Source: a virus
Lineage: Duplodnaviria; Heunggongvirae; Uroviricota; Caudoviricetes
Direction: 5' to 3' (one strand)
Virus record (IMG/VR): IMGVR_UViG_3300012348_000120
Length of the DNA: 64,000 nucleotides
Below, piece by piece: positions 163-45,054 of this stretch. The notes below the pieces were generated by a model that did no database searches, was not told the origin of the DNA, and saw only the letters and a program-made list of their open reading frames with translations. Made by a program: the position numbers and the translations under genes. Within the stretch, counting starts at the first letter, position 1. Every line of letters begins with the position of its first letter.

Positions 163-238
163 TGGTAGTCCCCCTCGGACTTGAACCGAGATATCCGTTC
201 TTATGAGGAACGCTCATTCACCAATTATGATAAAGGAC
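163..238 (-). tRNA. tRNA with CAU anticodon (Met or lysidine-Ile), CCA encoded
   Basis: reverse complement folds as a cloverleaf with acceptor stem GTCCTTT/AGGGGAC-type pairing, anticodon stem CGTTC/GAACG, loop CTCATAA, T-loop GGTTCAAGTCC, 3' CCA. Confidence 0.7.
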
Positions 239-354
239 CGTAATTCTGATCGGTTTGTCGCAGACACCGAAAAACTGCTTTCAGCAACCTAGACGCAGAG
301 CATCATCCCTGTAGGACCATTGTCCCGCAACCGCCATCGTGTTACTGTCTAAAA

Positions 355-437
355 TGGTGTCCCCTGTCGGACTCGAACCGACACTCCTAAGAAGGAGATT
401 TTAAGTCTCCCGCGCCTACCAATTACGCCAAGGGGAC
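355..437 (-). tRNA. tRNA-Leu (UAA anticodon), class II with long variable arm, CCA encoded
   Basis: reverse complement: 7-bp acceptor GTCCCCT/AGGGGAC, anticodon stem GGAGA/TCTCC, loop CTTAAAA, T-loop GGTTCGAGTCC, 83 nt. Confidence 0.65.
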
Positions 438-557
438 GTTTATTTCGTTTCCGACACCAGCCCCCATACCCGCCGTGTCAGTGATTACTTCCATATCCCA
501 AAGAGAACAAGAAAGGAGAAAAGTTCTCAACGGTTTATTAAGTATCTTTCCTAAGAT

Positions 558-634
558 TGGCGATTCCGACAGGACTCGAACCTGTAACCCACAGCTTAGA
601 AGGCTGTTGCTCTATCCAGTTGAGCTACGGAACC
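558..634 (-). tRNA. tRNA-Arg (UCU anticodon), CCA encoded
   Basis: reverse complement: acceptor GGTTCCG/CGGAATC (one G-U pair), anticodon stem ACAGC/GCTGT, loop CTTCTAA, T-loop GGTTCGAGTCC. Confidence 0.7.
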
Positions 635-2230: not shown

Positions 2231-2478
2231 TTTACTTCCACTTCACGATATTGAACTTCAAGCCATTCATATGCAGAAATAGCATCATTAGGAATCCAGC
2301 GACCTTTGACAAACTCATGCTCACGACCATGGTTAGGTAAGTCAGCGTAAGCCTCTTCGGCTGTTGGCCAACGATCAAGAACTACCGCGCTGTTTGGATA
2401 GTTACAACCATATTGGTCAACTTGTTGAATAACAACTTGCCATTCACACTGAATTGTTTTTGTCCTGAAGTTTTTCAT
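2227..2478 (-). CDS. hypothetical protein
   Basis: 83-aa ORF; ATGA overlap with the upstream gene. Confidence 0.5.
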   Translation of the reverse strand: MKNFRTKTIQCEWQVVIQQVDQYGCNYPNSAVVLDRWPTAEEAYADLPNHGREHEFVKGRWIPNDAISAYEWLEVQYREVEVK

Positions 2479-2646
2479 CAGTAATCCCGCTCAGTTTCAA
2501 ACATCACGCCAAAGACAAACATCAGGGCAAGCCCTGGAATAGCAAGGGCAGCAGCAACCCATAGGGAAACTCCTTCATCAATGCAACCAGCGGCAATCAC
2601 CATCAAAAGACCAATCATAACCATCACAGTGCGAAACCAAGCCATT
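2478..2646 (-). CDS. small hydrophobic membrane protein (about 56 aa)
   Basis: not in the ORF track; RBS cagaaaggaaaataca then ATG; two predicted TM helices; stop overlaps the next ATG. Confidence 0.45.
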
Positions 2647-2662
2647 GTATTTTCCTTTCTGA

Positions 2663-2929
2663 TTAGGTGCGAACCGAAATGGTTGAACCATCTTTGAATT
2701 TCATATAGAAGCCATCATAGTAGTCAGCATCACCATGATCTTTTTCAAACTTGCCATATTCTTCTTCAAGGGCATCATATGCAATCACGGGAACAGACGT
2801 ATGAAACAGCTTGGCATCACGAGGATCAAACTTGACAAACTGTGCAAGGTGAGCGATGGTGGTTGACGTATCACCTTCTGCGGGATTGATCAGAAGCCGA
2901 GAACCGAAATGAGAAGCGAGAGTTTTCAT
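2663..2929 (-). CDS. hypothetical protein (start trimmed to MKTLASHFGS)
   Basis: ATG after a conserved-leader-like RBS; the track ORF runs through the promoter. Confidence 0.5.
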   Translation of the reverse strand: MKTLASHFGSRLLINPAEGDTSTTIAHLAQFVKFDPRDAKLFHTSVPVIAYDALEEEYGKFEKDHGDADYYDGFYMKFKDGSTISVRT

Positions 2930-2946
2930 GGTTGTCTCCTTGTTTG

Positions 2947-2986
2947 CTACAGGATATGTATATAGTGATTCGTAGTTCTTGTCAAG
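2947..2986 (-). promoter_or_regulatory. early promoter plus leader (copy)
   Basis: gene-sense TTGACA-agaactacgaatcac-TATATA-catatcctgtagc. Confidence 0.6.
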
Positions 2987-3194
2987 CCACATTCGGCTCA
3001 AGACGGAAAAACCACGAGTTTTTGTTTTCGGAAAACTTCGCAAGCACACGCTCACCGCAATGACGATAAGTGTTCATCAAACGAAGGCAAGCGAGTTCGG
3101 AACCAAAGGCATATAGCGTTCCACCAATTTCTTCAACCTCAAGATTTTCTTTTGCATGGATTTCAAACTCACGCTTGGCACGGAAAAGGTTCAT
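2982..3194 (-). CDS. hypothetical protein
   Basis: ATG preceded by cctgtaaccaagagagaggaaaccag. Confidence 0.5.
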   Translation of the reverse strand: MNLFRAKREFEIHAKENLEVEEIGGTLYAFGSELACLRLMNTYRHCGERVLAKFSENKNSWFFRLEPNVA

Positions 3195-3262: not shown

Positions 3263-4513
3263 TCAAGCGGCGGCAACCGCTTGAGTCCGAGCACGTTTCA
3301 TGCCTTCTTTGATCTTTTCAACTTTCTTTTCACCATTCGGGAAAACATCGTTGAACTTCACACTCTTGAACGCTTCCCACTTAGTCAGCAGAACATCCAG
3401 TTGATCAACAGGATTGTTTTCACTACCCAGACGACCACGCTCATCGCACATACCAACCCGATGCAGAACATTCACAGTCTCAGGATCATTCAGCGAACCC
3501 ATTTCATCAAACATTTTGACGAAAGTTTTAGCAGTCAGTTCATCCAGCTTGTGCATATTCATGTGAAACCGAGTAGCTTTCATAGCACGGTCACGCATCT
3601 TAGCAGGAACAGTCAGCCGATCAGCAAAGGCTTCAACAACGGGAACACCTTTCACGTCATGACCGAAGTGCTTCGGAAAGTCTTCTTTACGAGTCAGACC
3701 TTTACCAAAGTCATGAACCAGTGCAGCAAACCGAGTTTCCAGATCAAACCCAAACTTGGCAGCTTGAGTCAGAACCAGCATGGTATGCTCAAAGGCATTA
3801 CCTTCGGGATGCCAACGACGACTTTCCATTGCAGAACACAGGGCATACACTTCAGGAAACAGAACATGCAGAGCATCACATTCCAGCAGCGTATCAAAGA
3901 ACAGACGAGGATGGGGTTCCATCAGAGCACGGCTCAGTTCTTTCCACACACGTTCAGCAGTCAGTTCGTTCAGAACACCCTTCTTGGCCATCATGTGAAC
4001 CAGTTCACGAGTTTCCTTGGCAACAGTCCATTCCGCACCAAAACGAGCGCGAAACCGAGCCAGCCGCAGAACACGAACAGGGTCTTCAACAAAAGCATCA
4101 GAAGTATGACGCAGCACTTTCGCTTGCAGATCGTCTTGACCACCAAAGGGATCAAACAGAGCAAAACGACCTTCGTCACCTTCAACAAAGAACTCAGTGT
4201 CTTCCATCCGTTGCAGAGACATACTGTTGATGGTCAGGTCACGACGAGACAGGTCTTCTTCCAGCGTCACATCAGTGCCGAACTCAGAAGTGAAACCCAG
4301 ATACCCAGTGCCAGTCTTTTTTTCACGACGAGCCAGAGCAAATTCTTCACCAGTTTCGGGGTGCAGAAACACAGGAAAATCAGCGCCAACTTTTTCAAAG
4401 CCAGCAGCCAGCATTTCTTCGACCGTGGAACCAACCACCACGAAATCTTTATCTTTCGGCTCCATGCCCATCAGCATATCGCGAACAGCACCGCCGACCA
4501 GAAACGTTTGCAT
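3263..4513 (-). CDS. cca: CCA-adding tRNA nucleotidyltransferase with HD domain
   Basis: N-terminal PolB-type NTase (GGAVRD...DxD) plus HD-domain residues along 417 aa; start trimmed to MQTFLVGG after RBS aaggaa. Confidence 0.85.
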   Translation of the reverse strand: MQTFLVGGAVRDMLMGMEPKDKDFVVVGSTVEEMLAAGFEKVGADFPVFLHPETGEEFALARREKKTGTGYLGFTSEFGTDVTLEEDLSRRDLTINSMSLQRMEDTEFFVEGDEGRFALFDPFGGQDDLQAKVLRHTSDAFVEDPVRVLRLARFRARFGAEWTVAKETRELVHMMAKKGVLNELTAERVWKELSRALMEPHPRLFFDTLLECDALHVLFPEVYALCSAMESRRWHPEGNAFEHTMLVLTQAAKFGFDLETRFAALVHDFGKGLTRKEDFPKHFGHDVKGVPVVEAFADRLTVPAKMRDRAMKATRFHMNMHKLDELTAKTFVKMFDEMGSLNDPETVNVLHRVGMCDERGRLGSENNPVDQLDVLLTKWEAFKSVKFNDVFPNGEKKVEKIKEGMKRARTQAVAAA

Positions 4514-4532
4514 TGGTGATTCCTTTCTCATT

Positions 4533-5436: not shown

Positions 5437-6546
5437 TTAGACGATTTCATATTTGTTCATCACATATGTGATGAGTGGGGTTACGATGAGAAGGACAATC
5501 AGTGCCAAGACAAATGCCCAAGTTGGCGGAACAATGTCGTTTGACAGGTATTCAAAAGCATCCATTGATTGGAGTTTATAGTCACTCCGAATCACATTCT
5601 CAATATAGGCATTGATAGTGTCAATGTCAAGAACTTTCGCATCATAAATTGCATCACGGATTTTAACATTTACGATACTATCAGAACTCCAACTACGAAC
5701 ATCTACCCAAGATACTTTGTCATCAGACATGCCAACAACAACAATCACATCGTTGATATTATGAGCATCCCAAGATTGCGCAAGTTGTTCTGCAAAGTTT
5801 TGCGTTTTACTGGTTACTACTACAATTACGTTTGCACCAGTTTTCATAACATTTGAGTTTAGAACAGAAAGTTTCTTATTCCACTCTGCTTTCATAGTGG
5901 CTGACATAGCATAATCAACTGTGATCACACGATCAGTCTTATAAAAATCATAGATTTTTGGATATGAGATTGATGGTAGTTCTTCTGGTTTCAGGCGTTT
6001 ATTGAAAAGACTTGCTGATGCACCACGAATATAGTTGGTGTATGAGACTTGACCAGACACAGGATCACCAACTTTCACTTCTGCAAAACGAGGTGGCGTA
6101 TTTACACCTTGGGCATCAACACGAGAAACCTCATACGTGTCAATTGTTGAGGTAATAAAGTAGCGGCGTTCCCAAGGATATACTGAACGGTATTGTGTTT
6201 TGTATTTTGGTGTGCAAGTCCGCTTATCATTTATAGTAGTGCAAGTTTGGCCATCACGGACTCGACGAGTATTTTGGTTTGTGCAAAAACTATCTGGCCA
6301 ATCACTCCAATATTGATCACATGATTTCTTACGTGGATCAAGTTCTGTCACCACGCCATTTACAAACTTAACATCACTTGTCTGTGATCCAACGCCAGTG
6401 AGGAATACCAGAAATATGATGAGACTTGTTGCGAAAAACTGAATCGCAATTTCACCCCAAGTAATATTCATATGAAGAAATATCTTGGCGATACCAATCC
6501 ATACAATAAGAGGAAGAATGAATAGAAATGCATAGTATATGGTCAT
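5437..6546 (-). CDS. membrane protein with two N-terminal TM helices and a Cys-rich extracytoplasmic domain
   Basis: 369-aa ORF; promoter TTGACA-N17-TATATG just upstream at 6560-6605. Confidence 0.55.
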   Translation of the reverse strand: MTIYYAFLFILPLIVWIGIAKIFLHMNITWGEIAIQFFATSLIIFLVFLTGVGSQTSDVKFVNGVVTELDPRKKSCDQYWSDWPDSFCTNQNTRRVRDGQTCTTINDKRTCTPKYKTQYRSVYPWERRYFITSTIDTYEVSRVDAQGVNTPPRFAEVKVGDPVSGQVSYTNYIRGASASLFNKRLKPEELPSISYPKIYDFYKTDRVITVDYAMSATMKAEWNKKLSVLNSNVMKTGANVIVVVTSKTQNFAEQLAQSWDAHNINDVIVVVGMSDDKVSWVDVRSWSSDSIVNVKIRDAIYDAKVLDIDTINAYIENVIRSDYKLQSMDAFEYLSNDIVPPTWAFVLALIVLLIVTPLITYVMNKYEIV

Positions 6547-6559
6547 GTATCACCTATTG

Positions 6560-6605
6560 ATCGATTACGAATCCATACATATACTATACAGATAAATTTG
6601 TCAAG
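6560..6605 (-). promoter_or_regulatory. early promoter (variant) for CDS 5437..6546
   Basis: gene-sense TTGACAaatttatctgtatagTATATGtatggattcgtaatcg. Confidence 0.5.
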
Positions 6606-6609
6606 TGTT

Positions 6610-7168
6610 TTTTTCATACAGATACTTACTTTGTAAGTATCAAATTATTATAGATATTCATTCCTCGCTATCACTTCGTCATTCATATCTATAATAATTC
6701 TTTTAGTTATGATATTATTTTGAATATCATTTCCAGAGCCAAGATACACTTTGCCTTCAGGCTGGCAAGCGTGTATCTATGGGGAAATCTTTTCCGTCAC
6801 ACTGATACTTCATACAGAACAACCTTATAATGTCAGGTTATGGTGGTCACGCGGTGCCATTTTACGTTCTAACTTATTATGACGCAGACATGCTATAGCA
6901 GTATGAATTACATTAGCAGTCTTGCAAGTTTCCGAGGTGTCGTGAAGAGCTTGCTCATTTTCAAGTGGTCATCTTGATACATAAACGAACTCAGGCATCG
7001 GTAAAATGCCTGAGCACACATTGTTACTATATCTATTCGCATAGTGGTTTATTACTACCGAAAACGTAACAGAGGATATATCCTCATTATTTGTGTTATG
7101 GGTTTTACTACCTTTATATGACAGGTATTACCTGACCTTATTAGAGTATCATAGACTCCATGATTCGG
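6610..7168. other. roughly 560-bp ORF-free, hairpin-dense intergenic region; candidate structured ncRNA(s) or origin
   Basis: no ORF of 60 aa or more on either strand; several perfect palindromes or hairpins (6621-6641, 6648-6693, 6751-6787, 6993-7017, 7071-7084, 7123-7135). Confidence 0.4.
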
Positions 7169-7417
7169 TCAACATACTACTTTATCAAAATATGCTTTTA
7201 GTTCTGTGAATCCACCAATGTGATTTCCATCTACCCAGATTTGAGGATATGTTCTTGGCGTATATCCAGCTTTTTCACACTCTATAAGCATGTTTTCTTT
7301 TGCCCCATCTACAAACTCAACGTTCAATTCTTCATACTGAACGCCACGAATTTGCAATAGTGTTTTCGCTTGAATGCAATAACTGCATCCATTTTTTGTG
7401 TATATTTTTGCTTTCAT
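7169..7417 (-). CDS. nrdC: glutaredoxin (T4 NrdC-like)
   Basis: 82 aa with CxYC active site (NGCSYCIQAK) and a thioredoxin fold. Confidence 0.8.
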   Translation of the reverse strand: MKAKIYTKNGCSYCIQAKTLLQIRGVQYEELNVEFVDGAKENMLIECEKAGYTPRTYPQIWVDGNHIGGFTELKAYFDKVVC

Positions 7418-7420
7418 TTT

Positions 7421-7735
7421 TTATCCATATAATATAATAAGATGTGCCTTTGTTTCGTCTGGCACATTAGTTTTGTTGATCCATTCATCAAAGTCATAAC
7501 GTTCACCATTCAAATAGAAATCAGAAAAATCATTTTCAATTATATCGGCTGGACCATCATTACGATGTATTTTTCCATAGCGGTAATATATTTTTCTATT
7601 TGCAGTGTGGTCAATATACGCTGCGCCTTTTTCTCTATGAAGACAACCGTATCTGTAATACATTGTCAAATTGCCATCTTGATAGATGGTATATTTATGA
7701 TCACCTTTACTTTTTGGTCTTTTGTAGTTCTTCAT
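7421..7735 (-). CDS. MORN-repeat-like protein
   Basis: repeated YYRYG(x)HRxxGPA motifs; paralogous to CDS 29562..29837. Confidence 0.45.
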   Translation of the reverse strand: MKNYKRPKSKGDHKYTIYQDGNLTMYYRYGCLHREKGAAYIDHTANRKIYYRYGKIHRNDGPADIIENDFSDFYLNGERYDFDEWINKTNVPDETKAHLIILYG

Positions 7736-10279: not shown

Positions 10280-10371
10280 ATTTTCCTCATATTGACAAAT
10301 TTAAAAAAGAGAAAGTTTTCAACTTGAGGTGAAGCATTTCTCATTACGGCTTCACCGATTAATTAATAAGA

Positions 10372-10530
10372 ATAACGATGACGGTTACATGACACCTACT
10401 CCAAGTGGAGGTTGAAGGTTAGTTTTTTGTTTTACGAGCAGCATTCCCATTATTCGGCGCTCATCATACTAAATTAGTCTCATATATCTATTAGTCAGTC
10501 ATAACATTAAGATGTAACCGTCATCGTCGC
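10372..10530. repeat. perfect 15-bp inverted repeat (CGATGACGGTTACAT / ATGTAACCGTCATCG) separated by about 120 bp, inside a 300-nt untranslated leader
   Basis: read directly: 10376-10390 and 10512-10526 are exact reverse complements; no ORF between them. Confidence 0.6.
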
Positions 10531-10564
10531 ATTTTGTTCTCCACGGTCAAGTTCTTGTTTCTGA

Positions 10565-10603
10565 TGTATTATTTATATCAGATTCGTGTCAAAGTGTCAA
10601 GAC
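10565..10603 (-). promoter_or_regulatory. early promoter with duplicated -35-like TGTCAA boxes
   Basis: gattcgtgtcaaagtgtcaagac; TTGACA occurs twice 9 bp apart. Confidence 0.45.
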
Positions 10604-25820: not shown

Positions 25821-26870
25821 TCAGTCCCCGCCTTTCAGAAGGAACTGATTGCTGATCGTCTTGAAACTGAAACTTGGGTCTTCGTTGCATTTCCACACAA
25901 GACCCTCGCGAACCTTGTGAACGATGCTTGGACCTTCAGCAAGAGCAAGACCTTCTTCCACATTACGTGGCGCTGGCATTGCCGTTCCGAACACTGGAAC
26001 GTGTTCCAGTTTCAATTGTTTACATACTTCCCGCCGTGCTGTGGGACCAACGTATAGATGGCTGAACATATTGAACACGTCAAACACAAAGAACTGATGT
26101 TCTTTGAACCCTTCACGGTTTCCCTGAATGCCCGGACCCATAAATTCACCTTGGAAAGCAAACCCATCGGGAATGCTGTCACCAATCTTGAGGGCCATAG
26201 CAACAAGAGTATTGTCTTTGTTTTCTTCGTTGATTTTCAGTTCAAGGTTCCGACTGCAAACACGAAGTTCACCTTCCCAACGGAAGATAGTGCAACTGGT
26301 TCCATCCAGTTTCATTGTTACTTCGTAAGTAACATCACCTTTGTCCTGAATCTCTTGGAAACAGTTCTGAATGCGTTCCTGATCAGTTTTAGGAATCAGG
26401 CTGGTGGGAAACAGACCACGAACTTGACCAGCAAGTTGAGCAGGGATTTCTGGTTCCCACTTTTGGATGTTGAGAGCATCAGTTACGTCATCGTCCAGTG
26501 AAACTTGTCGATGGAACCCAATCCCATCTTCATGCTTGAAAGCCAGAATACATGGGAACTTGTCGCGGTCACCGTGCCATTCTACAGGAAGCAGTAGCCC
26601 CTGAGAAACTTGACCACGCAGTTTGACTGTCCGAAGACGTTCACCTTTCACCCCATTGTATTCACGGGGTTCTTGTCCTTTTGACAGGAACGCAGCAAGT
26701 TCAGTTGGCACCCAAGAGTCAATTTCAAGGTAAACGGCAAGGTCACCAACTTGAAACTCGTCTTTCTTGACCACAACTTTCCAGCCATCAACTGTGGCCA
26801 CGACAATAGCATCAGCACCTTCAATGGGCTGAATGTCGGAAATCCGACGAATAGAGGCAAGTTTACGCAT
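25821..26870 (-). CDS. ATP-dependent RNA ligase, DraRnl/Rnl5-like (N-terminal OB-like domain plus nucleotidyltransferase domain)
   Basis: motif I KLDGTS (Lys about 187), motif III FQGEFMGPG, motif IV EGLVWK, motif V SFKTISNQFLLK; start trimmed to MRKLASIRR after gggagaaaaaata. Confidence 0.8.
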   Translation of the reverse strand: MRKLASIRRISDIQPIEGADAIVVATVDGWKVVVKKDEFQVGDLAVYLEIDSWVPTELAAFLSKGQEPREYNGVKGERLRTVKLRGQVSQGLLLPVEWHGDRDKFPCILAFKHEDGIGFHRQVSLDDDVTDALNIQKWEPEIPAQLAGQVRGLFPTSLIPKTDQERIQNCFQEIQDKGDVTYEVTMKLDGTSCTIFRWEGELRVCSRNLELKINEENKDNTLVAMALKIGDSIPDGFAFQGEFMGPGIQGNREGFKEHQFFVFDVFNMFSHLYVGPTARREVCKQLKLEHVPVFGTAMPAPRNVEEGLALAEGPSIVHKVREGLVWKCNEDPSFSFKTISNQFLLKGGD

Positions 26871-27229
26871 TATTTTTTCTCCCGAATAAAGGCAGTGAGT
26901 GGAGTTCCGTATCCACATTGTAAGTCCGAATGAAGATTTCCACCGTTGATGGAATCGTTTAGATAGTCACTTTCAGTATAGCCATACCGATCAATACCAT
27001 CGCCAATCCCAACGTATTCACCGTCAGCATCAAAGGCAGAGTATCCGTAACTGTCAAAACCTTCGCTGTCGTAGTCGCCAAACATGGTTTTTTCATCATA
27101 TTCGATTCCATCCTCATACACTTCTTGATTCCAATCGGCAGGAACTTCGCCATAGCAGTTGTATTTGAACATTTCCCATCCGCTTTCATTCGCGTGTGGG
27201 CATAGCGGCGAATATTTTCCAGTGCTCAT
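26870..27229 (-). CDS. acidic Tyr/Gly/Asp-rich protein
   Basis: 119-aa ORF. Confidence 0.45.
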   Translation of the reverse strand: MSTGKYSPLCPHANESGWEMFKYNCYGEVPADWNQEVYEDGIEYDEKTMFGDYDSEGFDSYGYSAFDADGEYVGIGDGIDRYGYTESDYLNDSINGGNLHSDLQCGYGTPLTAFIREKK

Positions 27230-45050: not shown

Positions 45051-45054
45051 ACTA

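Follow-up and report, generated by a model that had tools for sequence, protein, structure and literature searches.

A conserved candidate large non-coding RNA following the glutaredoxin gene in uncultured aquatic T4-like phages

Results

The non-coding gap downstream of grx

The window analyzed here is a 64,000-nucleotide stretch of DNA from a tailed phage (IMG/VR record IMGVR_UViG_3300012348_000120). Within it, the glutaredoxin gene grx (7169–7417, minus strand; 82 amino acids, containing the full Pfam domain PF00462, E=2e-13) is separated from the next gene downstream, which encodes a 369-amino acid predicted membrane protein (5437–6546, minus strand), by a gap of 622 nt (6547–7168). Both genes are intact. 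Apart from the tRNA end, this is the largest non-coding gap of the 64-kb window. An earlier reading of this DNA, made from the sequence only, had described a coding desert of ~560 bp at 6610–7168; the stretch is indeed non-coding, and the full gap is wider than had been described. The same reading held that no ORF occurs here. Mechanical ORFs of up to 44 amino acids do exist, and what stands is that none is frame-conserved: across 11 related sequences, every ORF, whichever its strand, loses its frame in at least one variant, and a search across these variants for a conserved small ORF found none.

The region around the gap is an early region of auxiliary genes rich in RNA functions, and every neighboring gene runs in the same direction as the element described below (minus strand). 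It includes three tRNAs (tRNA-Met, tRNA-Leu, and tRNA-Arg; 163–634, minus strand, found by ARAGORN and in agreement with Rfam), a 422-amino acid enzyme of the CCA-adding/poly(A) polymerase family with an HD domain (3263–4531, minus strand), and a T4 Rnl-type RNA ligase (25821–26918, minus strand). An IMPDH/GMP reductase is also among these genes. The phage is considered T4-like because its relatives carry UvsW, UvsY, and gp19. A TTG-initiated ORF of 412 amino acids (3281–4519, plus strand) lies exactly antisense to the gene for the 422-amino acid CCA-adding enzyme; it is most likely a shadow ORF rather than a gene.

The gap is dense in inverted repeats. All six hairpins or palindromes pointed out by the sequence-only reading are present at the places it gave: GATACTTAC/GTAAGTATC (6621–6641), a hairpin with 15-nt arms AATTATTATAGATAT/ATATCTATAATAATT (6643–6657/6685–6699), AGATACAC/GTGTATCT (6742–6749/6771–6778), CTCAGGCAT/ATGCCTGAGT (6990–7014), GAGGATATATCCTC (7072–7085), and CAGGTATTACCTG (7122–7134). 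Six perfect inverted repeats (arm ≥8, loop ≤60) occur in 6610–7168, as compared with 0.53 ± 0.72 expected from dinucleotide shuffles (0 of 1000 reach six) and with a mean of 0.85 and a maximum of 3 in the 94 other 559-nt windows of the genome. Folding of the stretch as RNA, which the reading had suggested as a check, gives z-scores of about −5.5 on both strands (−5.5 for the minus and −5.7 for the plus strand).

Related sequences and distribution

The locus was recovered from sequence collections starting from its two flanking proteins, glutaredoxin and the 369-amino acid protein. The loci comprise one from IMG/VR (L001), two from the NCBI assembly GCA_902725615.1 and a Logan assembly (L012 and L013), five from ENA and JGI metagenomes (L014–L018), and others reached through glutaredoxin homologues (L034–L047). 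Eleven distinct full-length sequences, of which ~7 are clearly different variants, were aligned (alignment A4); their pairwise identities range from roughly 80% to 99%. The sequence-only reading had proposed a search for the same block in related phages, with a lack of conservation there counting against it. The block is found in these 11 distinct sequences, which represent at least seven distinct metagenomic variants from one clade of uncultured aquatic T4-like phages, and it is better conserved than the flanking genes.

The element has a length of ~555 nt, and in every locus its first base directly follows the grx stop codon. An nhmmer profile built from the 11 aligned sequences matches 7168–6616 of the window end to end (E=5e-194). 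L012 and L013 have 98.7% identity to the window across the element, and the counterpart of window 6547–7168 in L012 is 2378–3000. The GCA_902725615.1 contig (356 kb) encodes a 369-amino acid protein that is 100% identical to that of the window, yet its element differs by ~1.3%, and therefore the window belongs to a closely related but distinct genome.

The upstream neighbor of the element is grx in all loci recovered, and the grx–element junction is the only constant among lineages. The downstream neighbor varies. In most loci it is the gene for the 369-amino acid protein; in L044 and L046 it is a 66-amino acid gene followed directly by that of the CCA-adding enzyme, without the 369- and 181-amino acid genes; and in L047 it is an 83-amino acid gene with a canonical early promoter after the element. 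L047 also has an extra gene, for an FAD/NAD-binding oxidoreductase, upstream of grx. These differences in gene content are located at 2874–4249 in L044 and 1219–3142 in L047. Each alternative downstream gene has its own promoter past the element.

Beyond this clade the element was not detected. Relatives whose 369-amino acid protein is ≤62% identical carry no copy by the nhmmer profile (49 sequences), and have other genes and no gap at the element's position; the contigs for P0006 and P0007 stop short of the upstream region. Distant-mode blastn with 6400–7400 against 50,697 INPHARED phage records gave no match. Exact and degenerate pattern scans of viral contigs returned only the known IMG/VR contig and chance matches in coding DNA (L010 and L025, which are not copies of the element), a scan of metagenomes returned the known variants and three chance matches (L026, L028, and L029), and a scan of genomes returned one chance match, inside recN of a Leptospirales MAG. 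Across the viral, metagenome, and genome collections scanned, the known distribution of the element is narrow: one phage clade, at ≥80% identity.

Conservation of the element

Compared with L001, the element has 93–97% nucleotide identity over most of its length, whereas the flanking coding DNA has 75–90%. The mean pairwise difference among the 11 sequences is 0.109 for the whole element and 0.071 for its core (alignment columns 251–452, window 6922–6730); the values for grx codon positions 1, 2, and 3 are 0.119, 0.074, and 0.32, respectively. The element evolves as slowly as non-synonymous codon positions. Its variable sites show no 3-base periodicity (61, 59, and 52 by position modulo 3), and the alignment of the element has 24 indel columns, mostly of single bases. 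The element is single-copy in the window, and its complementarity to the rest of the window is not above chance (matches of ≤13 nt).

Base-pair covariation and strand

A consensus structure calculated with RNAalifold on the alignment has 166 pairs in 27 helices. Standard pairs form in 98.7% of cells (166 pairs in 11 sequences), and 21 of the 166 pairs show compensatory double changes. Shuffling of the partners yields 8.0 ± 1.6 such pairs (0 of 500 shuffles reach 21), and sliding the 3' partners by 1–3 columns, a control that preserves relatedness, yields only 1–3. Helix 9 occurs in the compensated versions CAGGC/GCCUG, CUGGC/GCCAG, CACGU/ACGUG, and CGGAC/GUCCG; helix 12 in the versions GCAAG/CUUGC, GCGGG/CCCGC, and GUAGG/CCUAC; and helix 25 in at least five. 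L047, the most divergent sequence, rebuilds the three-tier hairpin of the core (6922–6886) through ~12 substitutions while keeping its 8-nt loop. Helices 2, 19, 23, and 24 have fixed stems and loops that drift in sequence and length. The core is too invariant for its pairing to be tested by covariation, and the alignment is shallow, covering one clade.

Among the one-sided changes, U-A to U-G and G-C to G-U predominate as read on the minus strand, a count biased by the prediction of the structure on that strand. As an unbiased check on the strand, consensus-fold energies were calculated for both strands of the same alignment: the value is −148.4 kcal/mol for the minus strand and −129.0 kcal/mol for the plus strand, a difference of 19 kcal/mol in favor of the minus strand. 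From these patterns, selection appears to act on RNA pairing on the minus (gene) strand, and we consider it highly probable that the locus holds a structured RNA element under selection on this strand.

Two features of the RNAalifold structure were dropped, as L018 and L047 break their pairing without compensation. Both are long-range closing helices, one pairing 46–54 with 372–380 and the other pairing 33–39 with the −35 hexamer of the downstream promoter P2.

Organization of the element

The whole conserved element (6616–7168, minus strand; ~553 nt) begins directly behind the grx stop codon and runs slightly beyond a 3' terminal hairpin. All features below are on the minus strand. The 5' hairpin, helix 2 (GUCAGG/CCUGUC; 7120–7136), is paired in all 11 sequences and has a loop that differs in five variants. 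It is followed by a 5' branched domain (7016–7096), which consists of the closing helix 5 (ACACA/UGUGU), hairpin helix 6 (GAGGAU/AUCCUC), and helices 7 and 8, with compensatory changes at pairs 74:155, 86:98, and 88:96. Helix 9 (6989–7015) is a GC-rich hairpin of 10–11 bp, followed by UCGUUUAUGU; compensatory changes in four of its pairs give four different stem sequences. Helices 10–13 (6924–6988) include the hairpin GCAAG...CUUGC (6954–6924) and have five pairs with double changes.

The nearly invariant core of ~190 nt (6731–6922; pairwise difference 0.071) comprises helices 14–16, which make up the three-tier hairpin, helices 17–19, and the long hairpin 21–23 (6787–6731). A search for further covarying helices brought out one plausible pseudoknot, PK1, in which the loop UUCAUAC (6907–6901) would form 7 bp with GUAUGAA (6815–6809), spanning 6809–6907. 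PK1 is paired in all 11 sequences and has one compensatory change, U-A to C-G in L047; support for this candidate is weak, since 36 of 500 shuffles do as well.

Downstream of the core are helix 24 (6709–6730), a hairpin AUGAUAU/AUAUCAU with a variable loop, and helix 25 (6643–6699), a long hairpin whose arms form 15 bp perfectly in the window. In helix 25, four pairs have changed in a compensatory manner, and U-A has become U-G several times. Its apical part, which has GAAUGA on both strands, is invariant in all 11 sequences (motif TGAATGACG.AG...TAGC.AGGAATGA). The 3' terminal hairpin, helix 27 (6621–6641), has the form GAUACUUAC-AAA-GUAAGUAUC, is followed by no U tract, and in L047 and L024 has G-C in place of A-U, a compensatory change. 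The unpaired parts of the element are conserved as well.

Promoters and transcript ends

The early promoter of this phage has the form TTGACA-N8-CGAATCAC-N2-TATACA, followed by AAGAGAGG and ATG, and occurs in ~15 copies on the minus strand. These promoters are often directly preceded by a terminator composed of a GC hairpin and T6–7. The stereotyped early cassette ends in GTAACCAAGAGAGG-ATG, for example at 1588, 1832, 2985, 3252, and 27524, and further at 45051, 62509, 63149, 63638, and 63988 (all minus strand). The invariant CGAATCA in the spacer of the early promoter is unusual, and its sequence suggests an extra recognition element.

The gene downstream of the element has a promoter, P2 (TTGACA-N17-TATGTA; 6604–6576, minus strand), which lies outside the RNA element. 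The early promoter that the sequence-only reading had placed here corresponds to P2, which resembles the repeated early-promoter pattern of the phage. In L047, P2 is replaced by a canonical early promoter slightly further downstream.

A consensus scan identified a candidate promoter, P1, at the 5' end of the element (7145–7172, minus strand), with hexamers TTGACC (7172–7167) and GATACT (7150–7145) separated by N16. Its −35 hexamer extends over the grx stop codon, and helix 1 offers an alternative use for the same bases. The hexamers of TTGACC-N16-GATACT are kept in 10 of the 11 variants, with a variable spacer; L047 has TTGACC-N18-TATGCT. P1 is without the CGAATCA spacer motif in the register of the canonical early promoters. 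Judging from the sequence, transcription from P1 would begin near 7138, with the first hairpin 2 nt further on, and would produce an RNA of ~525 nt with hairpins at both ends. Internal TATAAT sites at 6831 (plus strand) and 6647 (minus strand) were dropped as unconserved among the variants.

Neither end of the element has a canonical terminator (GC hairpin and T6–7). Transcription may therefore equally well run in from the upstream operon and on into the next gene, and the element may exist only within a long polycistronic early mRNA. Helix 9 was flagged by a terminator scan, having an 11-bp stem and a weak or broken U tail (UCGUUUAUGU). Located 150 nt into the element, it has the look of a weak terminator, which might divide the unit.

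Comparison with known RNAs

A search of Rfam (cmscan, E≤10) with window 6300–7500 and with L047, L044, L014, and L037 returned only noise outside the element, and a scan of the whole window at the gathering threshold returned the three tRNAs and nothing else. ARAGORN found no tRNA or tmRNA in the element, its only genes being those at 163–634. So far as covariance models tell, the lack of an Rfam match excludes ROOL, GOLLD, OLE, group I and II introns, RNase P, 6S, tmRNA, and known ribozymes. A group I or II intron is further excluded because neither flanking gene is interrupted. A riboswitch or 5' leader of the next gene was rejected, as L044 and L047 have other genes downstream and a promoter separates the element from the gene that follows. 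Beyond work on GOLLD and ROOL, neither Rfam nor the searchable literature yielded a similar phage RNA or a description of this element. As no catalogued RNA family matched, the element is a candidate new large phage RNA.

ROOL (rumen-originating, ornate, large RNA) is encoded by phages, has many helices and pseudoknots and no known protein partner, and often occurs in regions rich in tRNA genes; ROOL env-120 is 659 nt in length (PMC12286853). GOLLD, which was discovered in aquatic metagenomes, is a large and ornate RNA carried by phages and prophages; one of its halves is strongly conserved, the other less so (PMC12286853). Both are 600 to over 800 nt long and have recently been shown to form RNA-only cages, or nanocages (PMC12286853).

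The element resembles ROOL in its phage origin, similar size, and many helices, and the tRNA-rich setting of many ROOL RNAs has a parallel in the three tRNAs, CCA-adding enzyme, and RNA ligase of its early region. However, it has no detectable homology in sequence or structure to ROOL (Rfam model, E≤10, five variants). With GOLLD it shares a division into a strongly conserved and a more variable part, but GOLLD members, characterized by a defined conserved 3' region, are often >800 nt long, whereas the element is ~525–555 nt; it has no Rfam match to GOLLD at E≤10, and has no embedded or adjacent tRNA. ROOL and GOLLD are often found near tRNA genes in phages or prophages. The element has a phage setting, and its nearest tRNAs are ~6 kb downstream, not adjacent, with the CCA-adding enzyme between. 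The element falls outside ROOL and GOLLD because their models do not match. We regard it as a candidate new family among large structured phage RNAs, most like these two in kind.

The tRNA region of phage T4 encodes small stable non-coding RNAs (species 1 and 2, or RNAs C and D) of roughly 120–140 nt that are processed from a tRNA precursor. Like these, the element is non-coding and lies in the early/tRNA region of a T4-type phage; unlike these, it is ~4 times longer, 6 kb from the tRNAs, and directly after grx. The sequence-only reading had allowed for one or more structured RNAs, with those of T4 as the comparison. A structured RNA is strongly supported by the conservation, the compensatory changes, and the strand-specific G-U wobble. 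As to number, the evidence favors one unit of ~525–555 nt with a ~190-nt core over several small T4-type RNAs; sub-transcripts may occur within the unit.

Discussion

We consider it likely that the desert downstream of grx encodes a large structured non-coding RNA, which is read from the minus strand and acts as RNA. The RNA would span about 525–555 nt, beginning at or just after the grx stop codon, either from the σ70-like P1, whose −35 hexamer lies on that codon, or through read-through of the grx transcript, and its end would be the stable 3' hairpin that shortly precedes the next gene's promoter. About 25 helices are predicted in it. The peripheral covarying hairpins, in which pairing is kept while sequence drifts, may serve as struts and as protection against nucleases. 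The frozen ~190-nt core, with its possible loop-to-strand pseudoknot, could provide a tertiary fold and a site for binding a partner. We infer its ends, stability, action in trans, and binding partner from the sequences, and picture a compact fold that would bind a protein, another RNA, or copies of itself, rather than a leader of the next gene.

That the RNA accumulates as a discrete trans-acting molecule is at best an even proposition. More tentatively, and somewhat short of even, it may represent an undescribed class of ornate non-coding RNA of >500 nt in uncultured aquatic T4-like phages, expressed early as a discrete, stable, trans-acting molecule. Possible roles within such a class, by analogy, are a self-assembling scaffold like ROOL and GOLLD, or a decoy or sponge for a host factor; either might fit the surrounding RNA-repair and tRNA genes.

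In the main alternative, the element is not a free-standing RNA but belongs to the grx operon, as a structured 3' UTR or intercistronic module that acts in cis. Transcribed only within the polycistronic early mRNA, it would then stabilize, process, attenuate, or insulate that mRNA, for instance by blocking nucleases or through partial termination at helix 9. The grx stop codon always borders the element directly, a canonical terminator is lacking both between grx and the element and between the element and the next gene, and helix 9 has a terminator-like form with a covarying stem; helix 9 and the terminal hairpins do resemble ordinary intrinsic terminators or mRNA-stabilizing hairpins. However, a few hairpins would suffice for such functions, and they do not call for a unit of 550 nt with a ~190-nt core in which loops and joints, too, change as slowly as second codon positions. 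The terminators that this phage ordinarily uses are simple, single GC hairpins with T6–7 placed before promoters, whereas the element is a multi-domain unit of 550 nt, and a promoter-like site is present at its 5' end. We regard a cis-acting module as unlikely, if a serious competitor to a free-standing RNA.

Two kinds of element acting as DNA were candidates of the sequence-only reading: an origin of replication and an array of palindromes bound by protein. The palindromes are many, both strands fold well as single strands, and T4-type phages have origins in intergenic regions. Direct repeats in the element are nevertheless limited to two copies of 8–14 nt, with neither iterons nor repeated boxes, and the composition is ordinary (GC 0.30–0.40, close to that of the surroundings, with unremarkable skew). 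An origin of the iteron type or of the T4 oriE type, for which an array of direct repeats or an AT-rich unwinding element would be expected, is thereby not supported. An array of protein sites would not tolerate the drift of stem sequences with pairing kept, and the selection seen is on RNA pairing of one strand: wobble changes are mostly G-U on the minus strand, and the consensus energy favors that strand by the 19 kcal/mol given above. Function at the DNA level is accordingly very improbable.

A decayed pseudogene, which the sequence-only reading had set against its own proposal, or a recently spread selfish insert (a MITE or intron remnant) lacking its own function, would account for the absence of an ORF, and recent transfer between phages could in principle account for the near-identity of the core, but we give this explanation almost no weight, as the element is conserved above the flanking genes with compensatory changes, is a single copy in the window, has no terminal repeats, occupies one fixed position across the lineages, matches no intron family, and leaves both flanking genes intact.

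To our knowledge, very few bacterial or phage non-coding RNAs of >500 nt with elaborate conserved structure have been described, namely GOLLD, ROOL, OLE, and HEARO. Each of these is biologically or structurally unusual. If the proposed large RNA is real, an unrelated example from lytic T4-type phages would widen this small set. Because the element is narrowly distributed and has no cultured host, its immediate impact is limited. Because genes for tRNAs, a CCA-adding enzyme, and an RNA ligase surround it, the element could be relevant to the handling or protection of RNA by large phages during infection. At ~550 nt and with clear domain boundaries, it is a compact target for cryo-EM or probing.

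A second conserved non-coding stretch occurs in the window at 10280–10603 (minus strand; 324 nt), with 99% identity to L001 over 10401–10500. It has no Rfam match in the whole-window scan. Four TTGACA/TTGACC motifs are followed by a 16-bp long-range inverted repeat (10528–10513 with 10389–10374), which encloses ~120 nt, and then by a hairpin and T6. With an RNA fold z-score of −3.8, this stretch may be another structured RNA.
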